This document shows positions 1,350 to 64,000 of a stretch of DNA of 64,000 nt, piece by piece. The stretch lies in assembly GCF_054482525.1 (NCBI RefSeq), contig NZ_CM137006.1, one strand, 5' to 3'. Position 1 is the first letter of the stretch; the number at the start of each line of letters is the position of its first letter. The notes below the pieces were generated by a model. It was given only the letters and a program-made list of their open reading frames with translations. It ran no database searches and had not been told where the DNA came from. The position numbers and the translations under genes were made by a program.

Positions 1350-4022
1350 ATGACAGATGTAACGATTAAAACGCTGGCCGCAGAGCGACAGACCTCCGTG
1401 GAACGCCTGGTACAGCAATTTGCTGATGCAGGTATCCGGAAGTCTGCTGACGACTCTGTGTCCGCACAAGAGAAACAGACTTTGATTGACCACCTGAATC
1501 AGAAAAATTCAGGCCCGGACAAATTGACGCTGCAACGTAAAACACGCAGCACCCTTAACATTCCTGGTACCGGTGGAAAAAGCAAATCGGTACAAATCGA
1601 AGTCCGCAAGAAACGCACCTTTGTGAAACGCGATCCGCAAGAGGCTGAACGCCTTGCTGCGGAAGAGCAAGCGCAGCGTGAAGCGGAAGAGCAAGCCCGT
1701 CGTGAGGCAGAAGAATCGGCTAAACGCGAGGCGCAACAAAAAGCTGAACGTGAGGCCGCAGAACAAGCTAAGCGTGAAGCTGCTGAACAAGCGAAACGTG
1801 AAGCTGCGGAAAAAGACAAAGTGAGCAATCAACAAGACGATATGACTAAAAACGCCCAGGCTGAAAAAGCCCGCCGTGAGCAGGAAGCTGCAGAGCTCAA
1901 GCGTAAAGCCGAAGAAGAAGCGCGTCGTAAACTCGAAGAAGAAGCACGTCGCGTTGCTGAAGAAGCACGTCGTATGGCGGAAGAAAACAAATGGACTGAT
2001 AACGCGGAACCGACTGAAGATTCCAGCGATTATCACGTCACTACTTCTCAACATGCTCGCCAGGCAGAAGACGAAAGCGATCGTGAAGTCGAAGGCGGCC
2101 GTGGCCGTGGTCGTAACGCGAAAGCTGCGCGTCCGAAGAAAGGCAACAAACACGCTGAATCAAAAGCTGATCGTGAAGAAGCACGCGCAGCAGTACGTGG
2201 CGGTAAGGGCGGAAAACGTAAAGGTTCTTCGCTGCAGCAAGGCTTCCAGAAGCCTGCTCAGGCCGTTAACCGTGACGTTGTGATCGGCGAAACCATCACC
2301 GTTGGCGAACTGGCGAACAAGATGGCGGTTAAAGGCTCTCAGGTCATCAAAGCGATGATGAAACTGGGCGCAATGGCAACCATCAACCAGGTTATCGATC
2401 AGGAAACCGCACAGCTGGTTGCTGAAGAGATGGGCCACAAAGTTATCCTGCGTCGTGAAAACGAGCTGGAAGAAGCGGTAATGAGCGACCGTGACACGGG
2501 TGCAGCGGCTGAACCGCGTGCGCCGGTTGTGACCATCATGGGTCACGTTGACCACGGTAAAACCTCTCTGCTGGACTACATTCGTTCAACGAAAGTGGCC
2601 TCTGGCGAAGCGGGCGGCATTACCCAGCACATTGGTGCATACCACGTTGAAACTGAAAACGGCATGATCACCTTCCTGGACACCCCGGGGCACGCCGCGT
2701 TTACTTCAATGCGTGCTCGTGGTGCGCAGGCAACGGACATCGTAGTCCTGGTTGTTGCTGCCGACGACGGCGTAATGCCGCAGACCATCGAAGCAATCCA
2801 GCACGCGAAAGCGGCGCAGGTTCCGGTGGTGGTTGCAGTGAACAAGATCGATAAACCAGAAGCCGATCCGGATCGCGTTAAGAACGAACTCTCCCAGTAC
2901 GGCATCCTGCCGGAAGAGTGGGGCGGTGAAAGCCAGTTCGTACATGTGTCTGCGAAAGCGGGTACTGGTATCGATGAGCTGCTGGACGCTATCCTGCTGC
3001 AGGCGGAAGTTCTGGAACTGAAAGCGGTACGTAAAGGTATGGCGAGCGGTGCGGTTATCGAATCCTTCCTCGATAAAGGTCGTGGTCCGGTTGCTACCGT
3101 TCTGGTACGTGAAGGTACTCTGCACAAGGGCGATATCGTTCTGTGTGGCTTCGAATACGGTCGTGTTCGTGCGATGCGTAACGAACTGGGTCAGGAAGTG
3201 CTGGAAGCGGGTCCGTCCATTCCGGTGGAAATCCTCGGCCTGTCCGGCGTTCCGGCTGCGGGTGATGAAGTTACCGTTGTACGTGACGAGAAGAAAGCGC
3301 GTGAAGTTGCACTCTATCGTCAGGGTAAATTCCGCGAAGTTAAACTGGCACGTCAGCAGAAATCTAAACTCGAGAACATGTTCGCCAATATGACCGAAGG
3401 CGAAGTTCACGAAGTGAACATCGTCCTGAAGGCAGACGTACAGGGTTCCGTGGAAGCTATCTCCGACTCCTTGCTGAAACTGTCTACTGACGAAGTTAAA
3501 GTGAAGATCATCGGTTCTGGCGTAGGTGGTATCACCGAAACCGACGCTACCCTGGCTGCGGCGTCCAACGCCATCCTGGTTGGCTTCAACGTACGTGCTG
3601 ATGCCTCTGCACGTAAAGTGATTGAAGCGGAAAGCCTGGATCTGCGTTACTACTCCGTCATCTATAACCTGATCGACGAAGTGAAAGCGGCAATGAGCGG
3701 TATGCTGTCTCCGGAACTGAAACAACAGATTATCGGTCTGGCGGAAGTTCGTGACGTATTCAAATCACCGAAATTTGGTGCCATCGCAGGTTGTATGGTT
3801 ACCGAAGGTGTGGTTAAACGTCACAACCCGATCCGCGTTCTGCGCGACAACGTGGTTATCTACGAAGGCGAGCTGGAGTCCCTGCGCCGCTTCAAAGATG
3901 ACGTTAACGAAGTCCGTAACGGTATGGAATGTGGTATCGGCGTTAAGAACTACAACGACGTCCGCACTGGCGATGTGATCGAAGTGTTCGAAATCATCGA
4001 AATCCAACGTACCATCGCTTAA
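1350..4022 (+). CDS. infB: Translation initiation factor IF-2
   Basis: 890-aa ORF; GTP-binding motifs ([17 protein letters not shown]); charged repetitive N-terminal region; position after nusA. Confidence 0.97.
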
Positions 4023-4035
4023 GGTTGTCTGGGTT

Positions 4036-4113
4036 GTAGGCCGGATAAGGCTTTTACGCCGTATCCGGCAGCCGTTGCCTGATGCGACGCTCGCGCGTCT
4101 TATCAGGCCTACA
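4036..4113. repeat. REP/BIME palindromic elements (two inverted REP units)
   Basis: gtaggccggataagg...gccgtatccggca and gcctgatgcgacgc...cttatcaggcctac palindromes in the infB-rbfA spacer. Confidence 0.8.
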
Positions 4114-4142
4114 CAGCCCTTTCCACCTGAGATTAATTTTAA

Positions 4143-4172
4143 AAGGGGCTATGGCCCCTTTTTTGTCAGGAG
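4143..4172 (+). terminator. GC hairpin plus T-run (attenuating terminator-like structure) just upstream of rbfA
   Basis: ggggctatggcccc followed by ttttttg; overlaps rbfA ribosome-binding region. Confidence 0.45.
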
Positions 4173-4180
4173 AATTTATT

Positions 4181-4582
4181 ATGGCGAAAGAATTTGGTCG
4201 CCCGCAGCGCGTAGCGCAGGAAATGCAAAAAGAGATCGCTCTCATCCTGCAGCGTGAAATTAAAGATCCTCGTCTGGGCATGATGACCACCGTTTCCGGT
4301 GTCGAAATGTCTCGCGACCTGGCGTATGCCAAAGTATATGTAACGTTCCTCAACGACAAAGATGAAGACGCGGTTAAAGCGGGCATCAAAGCGTTGCAGG
4401 AAGCTTCTGGTTTCATCCGCAGCCTGCTGGGGAAAGCGATGCGCCTGCGTATCGTGCCGGAACTGACCTTCTTCTACGACAACTCGCTGGTTGAAGGGAT
4501 GCGCATGTCAAACCTGGTGACCAGCGTGGTCAAACATGACGAAGAACGTCGTGTTAACCCGGACGACAGCAAGGAGGACTAA
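4181..4582 (+). CDS. rbfA: Ribosome-binding factor A (30S maturation)
   Basis: [20 protein letters not shown]... 133 aa; start chosen at ATG 4181 preceded by AGGAG rather than the longer track ORF from 4082. Confidence 0.93.
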
Positions 4583-59880: not shown

Positions 59881-60635
<755 letters not shown>

Positions 60636-60739
60636 ATCAGCATACTTGTCCTTAGCCTTCTGCAGTGACAGCTGGTAGTACAGCGTGCTTCTGGCCAGCC
60701 CTGCAGCCTTTAACAGGTCAGACTGGCAGTGTCCGCACC

Positions 60740-61261
60740 TCAGGCTCCGGATGACTTTCGTTTTTTCTCCAGCTCCTGGCGCTTTTTTTCCAGGAGATGC
60801 TCCTGCATGGCTTTCAGATATGCATTTTCTGCGCGAAGATAACGCAGCTCATTCTTCATCTCTTCCGGCGTCATGTTTGCCTCGTTTTCATGGGTATCAT
60901 CAGAACGGGTCATGCTTTTCTCCTTCCTGCGCCTGATAAAGGCCTCATTACCAGATTTGCGGTAGCCTTTTATCCAGTTTTTAACCGTGTTGTGGCTGGG
61001 AATGTTAAACCGGGCAGCTACCCGGGGTAGAGACTCAGAATGCCCGAGAGCATAAAGAACCACGCAAAGTTTATCTTCAGGAGAATAGCTACGCTTGTGT
61101 CTGCAATCCAGTGCCCGAGGACCGTGAAGAAGAAAAAGATTAATCCAGTGTGAGAGGCTGGTGTGAGAAAGTTGAAAGAGTTTTGCCGTAGAAATGATGC
61201 CTGCATGACCAGCCAGGTAGTGATTTACAGCGGCAAGTTTTACTTCAAATGAATGTTTCAT
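60740..61261 (-). CDS. insJ: IS3-family transposase OrfA (HTH), IS150 InsJ-like
   Basis: MKHSFEVKLAAVNHYLAGHAGIISTAKLFQLSHTSLSHWINLF… 173 aa. Confidence 0.88.
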   Translation of the reverse strand: MKHSFEVKLAAVNHYLAGHAGIISTAKLFQLSHTSLSHWINLFLLHGPRALDCRHKRSYSPEDKLCVVLYALGHSESLPRVAARFNIPSHNTVKNWIKGYRKSGNEAFIRRRKEKSMTRSDDTHENEANMTPEEMKNELRYLRAENAYLKAMQEHLLEKKRQELEKKRKSSGA

Positions 61262-61338
61262 AAACTGCACCTTCAGATGTCAGATTATGTCCAACATTTG
61301 GGGTGCAGTTCAGTTTACGCCGCATCCGGCACCTGTCT

Positions 61339-62331: not shown

Positions 62332-63228
62332 ATGGCCAAAGAAAGGGCATTAACGCTGGAAGCACTACGGGTTATGGACGCGATCGATCGCCGGGGCAGT
62401 TTTGCGGCGGCGGCGGATGAGCTGGGACGCGTGCCTTCCGCACTTAGCTACACCATGCAAAAACTGGAAGAAGAGCTGGATGTGGTGCTGTTTGACCGCT
62501 CGGGCCATCGCACCAAATTCACCAATGTCGGGAGGATGTTGCTGGAGCGAGGGCGCGTTTTGCTGGAAGCCGCAGATAAACTGACTACCGATGCGGAAGC
62601 CCTCGCGCGCGGTTGGGAAACGCATCTCACCATTGTGACCGAGGCGCTGGTACCGACACCTGCCTTTTTCCCGTTAATCGACAAACTGGCGGCAAAAGCC
62701 AATACCCAACTGGCAATTATCACCGAAGTGCTGGCGGGGGCGTGGGAACGGCTGGAGCAGGGGCGGGCGGATATTGTTATCGCGCCGGATATGCATTTTC
62801 GTTCCTCGTCGGAGATCAACTCGCGCAAGCTCTATACGTTAATGAACGTCTACGTTGCCGCGCCTGATCACCCGATTCATCAGGAGCCGGAACCGTTATC
62901 TGAAGTGACGCGCGTGAAATATCGTGGAATTGCGGTGGCGGATACCGCTCGTGAGCGCCCGGTGTTGACCGTACAGCTGCTGGACAAACAGCCGCGCTTA
63001 ACGGTGAGCACGATTGAAGATAAACGTCAGGCATTACTGGCGGGGCTTGGCGTGGCGACGATGCCGTATCCGATGGTTGAAAAAGATATTGCGGAAGGGC
63101 GGTTGCGTGTCGTCAGCCCGGAATCGACCAGCGAGATCGATATTATTATGGCCTGGCGTCGTGACAGTATGGGGGAAGCGAAATCCTGGTGTCTGCGGGA
63201 AATTCCCAAACTTTTTAGCGGAAAATAA
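62332..63228 (+). CDS. yhaJ: LysR-family transcriptional regulator YhaJ
   Basis: 298 aa, N-terminal HTH (GSFAAAADELGRVPSALSYTMQKLE). Confidence 0.92.
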   Translation: MAKERALTLEALRVMDAIDRRGSFAAAADELGRVPSALSYTMQKLEEELDVVLFDRSGHRTKFTNVGRMLLERGRVLLEAADKLTTDAEALARGWETHLTIVTEALVPTPAFFPLIDKLAAKANTQLAIITEVLAGAWERLEQGRADIVIAPDMHFRSSSEINSRKLYTLMNVYVAAPDHPIHQEPEPLSEVTRVKYRGIAVADTARERPVLTVQLLDKQPRLTVSTIEDKRQALLAGLGVATMPYPMVEKDIAEGRLRVVSPESTSEIDIIMAWRRDSMGEAKSWCLREIPKLFSGK

Positions 63229-63261
63229 TCGATTAAGCACCTTTTACAAGGTGCTTAATTA

Positions 63262-63630
63262 TTATTCTTGTTCCAGTTTCGGATCTGGTCCAAAGCGGTT
63301 TTCGCCTGGCGTACCCGCCTGGCAGTTAAAGACGATGATAATAAGCCAGCCGATAAACGGGATTAAGAATAGCAGTGCCCACCACGCCGAGCGGTCGGTG
63401 TCGTGCAGGCGGCGGAACTGAACCGCCCACCACGGTAAAAACACCAGAATACCGTAGATTGTCGTCAGGATGCCTTCGCCACCAGCGCGTTGCCAGCCTA
63501 ACATTTTATCCAGCAGCCCCAGCACGAACGTAAAGATGATGTTGACCAGAATAAACATCCAGTACTCTTTGCGCCGCGCACGACCCCGGAAACCGACATA
63601 ATTTTTTAGTACTTTCAGATACCAGTCCAT
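63262..63630 (-). CDS. yhaI: DUF805 inner-membrane protein YhaI
   Basis: …MDWYLKVLKNYVGFRGRARRKEYWMF… DUF805 signature; start uncertain (ATG at 63630 or 63651). Confidence 0.7.
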   Translation of the reverse strand: MDWYLKVLKNYVGFRGRARRKEYWMFILVNIIFTFVLGLLDKMLGWQRAGGEGILTTIYGILVFLPWWAVQFRRLHDTDRSAWWALLFLIPFIGWLIIIVFNCQAGTPGENRFGPDPKLEQE

Positions 63631-63761
63631 TTTTGCCTCAATTTTGCTCAATCACTTGTTTTTAAAGCAGCAAATTAAGAATAGACGTGAATGAAATGGC
63701 AGTAAATATTCGTTCAAGGAATTAATAAAGTGCCGTGAAGGCGCGCTAAGACTGATGACAA

Positions 63762-63869
63762 GCGCAAAATCGCCAGATGCGCTACGCTTATCTGGCCTAC
63801 GCGGCATTGTAACATATTGAATATAAACGTTTTGTAGGTTGGAAAAGACGTTCACGCCGCATCCGACAT
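63762..63869. repeat. REP-like palindromic elements
   Basis: gccagatgcgctacgcttatctggcctac … gtaggttggaaaagacgttcacgccgcatccgacat. Confidence 0.65.
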
Positions 63870-63896
63870 AAATAACACGCACTTAGCTAATAATCA

Positions 63897-63923
63897 GAGG
63901 CACCTCGTAAGGTGCCTTTTTTT
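63897..63923 (+). terminator. Hairpin plus T-run (Rho-independent terminator-like)
   Basis: gaggcacctcgtaaggtgcc followed by ttttttt. Confidence 0.5.
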
Positions 63924-64000
63924 AACCGAAGCGAACATCTCGTCCATGCGGTTCATCGAGATCCTGCCACGGACCAATTGAAATAATCCCCGTAGGGTTG

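Follow-up and report, generated by a model that had tools for sequence, protein, structure and literature searches.

A stem-loop just past the yqjG stop codon, conserved in position across Enterobacteriaceae, is probably a leaky intrinsic terminator in Escherichia coli

We analysed a 64-kb stretch of DNA (the window) whose final 800 nt are 100% identical to E. coli PCN033 and are present in 5422 of 5426 complete E. coli genomes. The minus-strand gene whose 3′ end had been suspected at the window edge proves, on extension into the PCN033 locus (L001; window position = L001 + 59199), to be yqjG, which encodes glutathionyl-hydroquinone reductase. Its CDS covers L001 4723-5709, and the part inside the window, 63922-64000, is likewise a 100% match to PCN033. 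The TAA stop codon lies at 63922-63924 and the translation ends in ...DEPHGRDVRFG*. In the extended locus yqjG is preceded by yqjF. The next gene downstream, co-directional with yqjG, is yhaH (63262-63630, minus strand), which encodes a DUF805 inner-membrane protein; tblastn places it downstream of yqjG on the same strand in most loci, at a distance of about 290 nt in Escherichia (292 nt here) and about 105-135 nt in most other genera. The stop of yhaJ is at 63228, and the hairpin studied here starts 669 nt further on, as the sequence-only reading had estimated (~670 bp downstream of yhaJ). Most of that interval is filled by yhaH, which the reading did not mention, and the true spacer is 63631-63921. 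K-12 MG1655 carries the identical hairpin, with its stem at 3252016-3252033 and the yqjG stop at 3252008-3252010, and the RefSeq record of that strain holds no annotation and no ncRNA between yqjG and yhaH.

Only one DUF805 gene (yhaH) separates yqjG from yhaJ here, compared to two in K-12 (yhaH and yhaI; 3305-4268 of the K-12 locus, L002), and some E. coli genomes carry IS1 together with two DUF805 genes in this interval. Elsewhere in the window, the transposase of IS1397 (IS3 family, with a programmed frameshift) lies between yhaL and cyuA, at about 59913-61261 (L001 714-2062), and a REP-like core is found at 61312-61328. The 69-nt gap between yqjF and yqjG, beyond the window, contains a 5-bp hairpin, GAGGAAGCTCCTC, followed by GTTTTT (L001 5735-5747). 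The terminator scan flags this hairpin on both strands, and it overlaps the likely ribosome-binding site of yqjG. It is probably a chance occurrence, but it could modulate yqjG translation. Landmine biosensors make use of DNT-responsive genes under YhaJ control, a group that includes yqjF-yqjG (PMC5031710); the YhaJ paper mentions neither yqjG nor an operon. A text search of the literature returned nothing relevant on a yqjG terminator, on yqjG together with yhaH, on yqjF-yqjG, or on the hairpin sequence in either orientation.

The 27-nt string GAGGCACCTCGTAAGGTGCCTTTTTTT is located exactly at 63897-63923. It had been described as a hairpin followed by T7, resembling a terminator, and folding upholds this description. 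The core stem-loop (63899-63916), which we assign to the minus strand as the probable 3′ terminator hairpin of yqjG, consists on the plus strand of a 7-bp, GC-closed stem (63899-63905 paired with 63910-63916, GGCACCT/AGGTGCC) and a 4-nt loop, CGTA. On that strand the stem can be extended into the T-run by A-T and G-T pairs. The plus-strand fold has a predicted energy of -14.0 kcal/mol, compared to a mean of -4.1 for 200 dinucleotide shuffles, none of which was equally stable (z = -4.96); for the complementary strand the values are -13.3 kcal/mol and z = -4.5. In the whole 64-kb window the core pattern GGCACCTNNNNAGGTGCC is found a single time, against an expectation of 0. In a consensus terminator scan the element is called solely on the minus strand, since the stem extension consumes part of the T-run on the plus strand.

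The yqjG strand reads GGU UAA AAAAA GGCACCU UACG AGGUGCC UCUGAUUAUUAGC, so that the stem starts 5 nt past the stop codon. The T7 of the plus strand (63917-63923) is an A7 on this strand and shares two bases with the TAA. The tail that follows the stem on the yqjG strand, UCUGAUUAUUA (63888-63898), is a weak U-tract and reads UCUGAUAAUUA in most E. coli.

Within E. coli, 4467 of 5426 genomes share the K-12 sequence of a 62-nt segment comprising the end of yqjG, the A7, the hairpin and the tail, and the allele of the window, with one substitution in the tail (GATTATT vs GATAATT), is found in 250; the segment occurs at one place per genome (median 1). The A7/T7 run is present in K-12 and in five other sampled E. 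coli. Among six genomes chosen to span 90-100% spacer identity, five have an unchanged stem. The sixth, ERL03-1416 (L006), has a 1-nt deletion in the 5′ arm (AAAAAAA-GCACC), and in the same strain the penultimate residue of YqjG is changed from Phe to Leu (CGC TTA GGT TAA). In E. coli KOr024 (L003, ~1437-1510) the A7|GG junction of the hairpin is the exact point at which an IS26 end, GGCACTGTTGCAAA, has been attached, with a truncated ptsP on the far side; this indicates an IS26-mediated rearrangement that destroys the hairpin.

Conservation beyond E. coli was assessed by scanning for the YqjG protein in one genome per species, which gave 80 loci from Escherichia, Citrobacter, Salmonella, Klebsiella, Enterobacter, Kosakonia, Kluyvera, Raoultella and other genera, and by searching each sequence for its best perfect hairpin within 45 nt downstream of the yqjG stop. 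In 67 of 81 sequences a perfect, GC-closed stem of 6 bp or more starts 4-11 nt past the stop; the same test succeeds in 8.7% of dinucleotide shuffles of those regions. Hairpins thus occupy the matching position after yqjG in 66 other species. The position is kept with many different stems: there are 37 distinct arm pairs (for example GGCACC/GGUGCC, GGGCAUC/GAUGCCC, GGGCGCG/CGCGCCC and GGCGUCC/GGACGCC), and each of the six basal pairs is occupied by 2-5 standard pair types. When 3′ arms are exchanged between species, pairing drops to 54%, a figure that shows only that the arms have diverged, the stems having been selected as perfect; the proper control is the comparison with shuffles. When 61 downstream regions were aligned with plain MAFFT, RNAalifold returned no consensus pairs, since stem families differ in the register of their arms. 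The seed alignment for a covariance model suffered from the same one-column shift, and per-sequence detection with shuffle controls was used instead.

The stem-loop of E. albertii, GGCACCCTTCGCGGTGCC, is identical in a Citrobacter metagenome-assembled genome, which supports the orthology of the Escherichia hairpin. MAFFT placed the hairpins of other genera against a segment at about 63725-63745 of E. coli, beside the conserved TTATTAATT, as though a decayed second copy of the hairpin lay there; this segment forms no real stem, and we rejected it. The stop-proximal hairpin is treated as the orthologue, and the remainder as an insertion, because both the sequence of that hairpin and its spacing from the stop agree with those in Citrobacter. 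We consider it likely, from these comparisons, that the hairpin is the E. coli orthologue of an intrinsic terminator of yqjG (probably of yqjF-yqjG) whose position is conserved across Enterobacteriaceae. The sequence-only reading had left room for something beyond a terminator of the adjacent gene. With the window extended, that room has essentially closed: the element is the 3′ stem-loop of yqjG, conserved in position.

The spacer into which the yqjG strand continues had been called REP-rich, and two REP-like elements are indeed found there. The first, at 63837-63878, closely follows the hairpin when the yqjG strand is read and contains an exact match to the REP core (CGGATGCGGCGTGAACG, 63849-63865). 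The second, GCCAGATGCGCTACGCTTATCTGGCCTAC at 63762-63800 (63772-63800 in a narrower delimitation), is inverted relative to the first and has 2 mismatches to a REP variant consensus. Both coincide with sub-threshold matches to naRNA4, a REP-derived model (20.8 bits for the first element). The hairpin shares with REP/BIME sequences an imperfectly palindromic character, an association with mRNA 3′ ends and the spacer itself. We rejected its classification as a REP: it is single in the window, and its orthologues include hairpins of genera whose corresponding locus lacks REPs.

Next to yhaH, an alignment of 12 genera reveals a conserved block (63631-63720, minus strand) with a promoter-like TTTACT-17-TATTCT and a presumptive 5′ UTR; the reading as a yhaH promoter is our own and corresponds to 8/12 consensus matches, below the threshold of the scan we used. 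Comparison of L011, L012, L021, L023, L030, L031, L039, L041, L068, L071 and L083 (at ~3510-3620) shows a promoter-like AATATTTAC..CATTCACGTCTATTCTTA, then a near-invariant CTTTAAAAACAAGTGATTGA..TGAGGC right before the ATG. A leader this strongly conserved is unusual for a DUF805 membrane-protein gene; the block could harbour a regulator site or act as a regulatory 5′ UTR. At the far end of yhaH, a 12-13-bp hairpin, GATTAAGCACCTTTTACAAGGTGCTTAATT, occupies 63231-63260 between the convergent genes yhaJ (plus strand, end 63228) and yhaH (minus strand, end 63262). Its core, GCACCT...AGGTGC, resembles that of the yqjG hairpin, and the terminator scan flags it on both strands. It is this hairpin, rather than the element at 63897-63923, that is the candidate for a bidirectional terminator of convergent genes in the neighbourhood.

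The distance between the yqjG hairpin and the yhaH block distinguishes Escherichia from the other genera. In the latter the block begins ~25 nt past the hairpin, and in Salmonella and Citrobacter it follows almost directly via TTATTAATT. In Escherichia ~170-190 nt, including the two inverted REP-like elements, separate the hairpin from TTATTAATT (63725-63898). The simplest reading of this arrangement is that an insertion in the Escherichia lineage, beside the hairpin, replaced the original U-rich tail. The portion of the spacer between the REPs is also its most variable segment within E. coli.

We scored the tails with a discriminant of the d'Aubenton-Carafa type, which combines hairpin and T-tract. 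Of the 67 hairpins, 22 qualify as terminators on the yqjG strand by this scale, which was combined with modern energies, is uncalibrated and serves for ranking only, and 15 of those 22 have a strong T-tract, as in Enterobacter (GGGCATC-AATA-GATGCCC-TTTTTTAA) and Yokenella (...TTTTTTAT). Salmonella and Citrobacter have the tail UUAUUAAU. Tails of the type AAUAAUUC or AAAUUAUU in Klebsiella and Kosakonia provide no U-rich tract on the yqjG strand, and the E. coli tail, UCUGAUUA, has 4 U in 8 positions (3/8 in K-12), with a T-score of 1.84 and a discriminant, again for ranking only, of -24.

These weak tails bear on whether the hairpin terminates transcription at all. It might be a non-terminating structure that, together with the REPs, shields yqjG mRNA from 3′ exonucleases while transcription continues into yhaH; shielding would then follow read-through and processing, or Rho-dependent termination further downstream. 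The weak yqjG-strand U-tracts of Escherichia, Klebsiella and Kosakonia speak for such a structure, and two REP elements, a type of sequence known to stabilise mRNA 3′ ends, follow directly. The tails of E. coli, Kosakonia and Klebsiella, the low E. coli score and the absence of the locus from published 3′-end tables make a stability hairpin conceivable, and the conserved feature could be of this kind rather than an efficient terminator. We nevertheless regard protection without termination as unlikely. Strong T-tracts stand at the same position and on the yqjG strand in 15 species, with 22 scoring as terminators, which argues that termination is the ancestral role, and yhaH has its own conserved promoter-like upstream block.

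The absence from 3′-end tables needs some qualification. No 3′ end was found at this locus, on either strand, in the Term-seq table of Adams 2021, in TERMITe 2025 or in the SMRT-Cappable-seq 2018 table, which cover abundant transcripts only; the tables were queried for yqjG and yhaH and, in addition, for b3102 (TERMITe) and the K-12 coordinate prefix 32520 (Term-seq). For a poorly expressed gene, such an absence is weak evidence.

The anatomy of the opposite strand raises a different question. Bidirectional intrinsic terminators, in which an A-tract, a hairpin and a U-tract follow one another, have been described between convergent genes by SEnd-seq-type studies. The present element resembles them in having an A-run upstream and a U-containing tail, so that both strands can form a hairpin followed by U's. 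It differs in that yqjG and yhaH are co-directional and in that the only strong tail faces a strand with no known transcript. The earlier proposal of a bidirectional terminator is compatible with the anatomy (perfect A7, hairpin, but a weak U tail) and does not suit the setting, given the co-directional genes and a T7 confined to E. coli.

A two-way terminator could act here mainly as an antisense insulator, stopping plus-strand transcription before it enters yqjG while being weak on the yqjG strand, a role that would be compatible with termination of yqjG. The antisense transcription might come from the REP/yhaH-promoter region or from read-through beyond yhaJ. A perfect U7 directly follows the 7-bp GC-rich stem on that strand, where E. 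coli has a T-score of 4.70 and a discriminant (a ranking value) of +27 vs -24 on the yqjG strand, and the A7 is present in all sampled E. coli as well as in the 4467 genomes that are K-12-identical over 62 nt. However, no annotated plus-strand transcript arrives at the hairpin, the flanking genes being co-directional, and yhaJ has a hairpin of its own at 63231-63260. A consensus scan from yhaH to yqjG found no plus-strand promoter-like site with at least 9/12 matches; when relaxed, it found a single 8/12 site, TAGACG-17-AATATT at 63682-63710, and this site is the yhaH promoter block read in reverse.

The comparison with relatives also speaks against an insulator. Opposite-strand scores pass in only three sequences, those of E. 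coli, Escherichia sp. E1V33 (marginally) and Trabulsiella guamensis, and E. coli alone among these has an uninterrupted run. Sister Escherichia species have TAG-ACAAA, TAA-ACAAA, TAG-TAAAA or TAA-CCACA vs TAA-AAAAA in E. coli, so that the run is broken within the genus (ACAAA, TAAAA, CCACA) and missing in other genera. On this distribution the T7 is a recent, E. coli-specific feature, and part of it is stop codon. Because it is interrupted in the sister species and shares two bases with the stop codon, a single C-to-A change, with no selection, would suffice to account for it. An insulating function is in our view a minor possibility.

A hairpin with U7 is also the typical 3′ module of enterobacterial small RNAs, and the sequence-only reading had suggested the end of an unannotated small transcript. 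Such a plus-strand transcript, an sRNA of the Hfq type or naRNA-like, or a message for a small protein, would run from the spacer across the REPs to the hairpin and its U7. Matches to isrD (RF01388) and STnc250 (RF01409), both Hfq-binding sRNAs of Salmonella, fall on the plus strand and share the terminal hairpin and U-run, and the REPs give matches to naRNA4. All Rfam matches to the element and the spacer are below the gathering score, however: isrD scores 21.5 bits against a gathering score of 37, STnc250 17.7 against 42, and only the generic terminator part is aligned. Identity with isrD was rejected, as its alignment covers a generic hairpin and U-run and nothing else.

Further evidence points the same way. 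The only plus-strand ORF inside the spacer has 21 aa, lies within a REP and is not plausible; a plus-strand ORF of 24 aa, which begins at the hairpin and extends into yqjG in antisense orientation, was also rejected. The inter-REP spacer is the part that varies most within E. coli, and the Term-seq table has no 3′ end here. In other genera only ~25 nt lie between the hairpin and the yhaH block, the REPs that would make up the body of the transcript are absent, and there is no U-run on the plus strand. With no promoter-like site of at least 9/12, no plausible ORF, no above-threshold Rfam match and no K-12 ncRNA, the suggestion of a small-transcript end loses its footing, and we regard a plus-strand sRNA or small-protein transcript as extremely unlikely.

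Remodelling in E. coli could in principle have combined these elements: the REP insertion would have displaced the U-tail and the C-to-A change beside the stop codon would have made the U7, so that the hairpin would act chiefly in the antisense direction, as an insulator of yqjG or as the 3′ end of an E. coli-specific, REP-containing, naRNA-like plus-strand RNA of ~100-200 nt. Such a change of function is very unlikely.

The preferred reading is that of a yqjG terminator. The hairpin is like the Rho-independent terminators of Enterobacteriaceae in having a GC-rich 7-bp stem and a tetraloop a few nucleotides past a stop codon at the end of a transcription unit, and the orthologues in Enterobacter, Yokenella, Pluralibacter and Trabulsiella have canonical U6-7 tracts. 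It is unlike them in that the U-tract on its own strand has degraded in E. coli (UCUGAUUAUU). A polymerase on the minus strand of the window would pass the yqjG TAA and transcribe GGCACCU-UACG-AGGUGCC, which would fold 5 nt past the stop, and then UCUGAUUAUU. The hairpin is expected to terminate yqjG transcription, in E. coli probably only partially because the U-tract is weak. It would also protect the 3′ end of yqjG mRNA and form a boundary between yqjG and the promoter region of yhaH, which runs in the same direction. The T7 is the complement of the stop codon and the five A's after it, giving the opposite strand, on which no transcript is known, the anatomy of a strong terminator.

The position relative to the stop codon, the stability of the fold, the conservation of that position with changed stems and the canonical U-tracts of other genera are observed; termination in E. 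coli, its efficiency and the operon structure we infer. Taken together, they make it quite probable that the element is a leaky terminator and 3′-end protector that divides yqjF-yqjG, probably an operon, from yhaH.

An unannotated hairpin of E. coli can thus be assigned a routine role, as a 3′ terminator or stability stem-loop of yqjG, and dropped as a candidate for a new RNA. It offers a documented case of a terminator that is conserved in position across the family, in which the stem has been kept while the tails have changed between genera and a REP insertion has arisen next to it in Escherichia. Knowledge of where the yqjF-yqjG transcript ends, and of whether it continues into yhaH, could aid the design of reporters for landmine biosensors.
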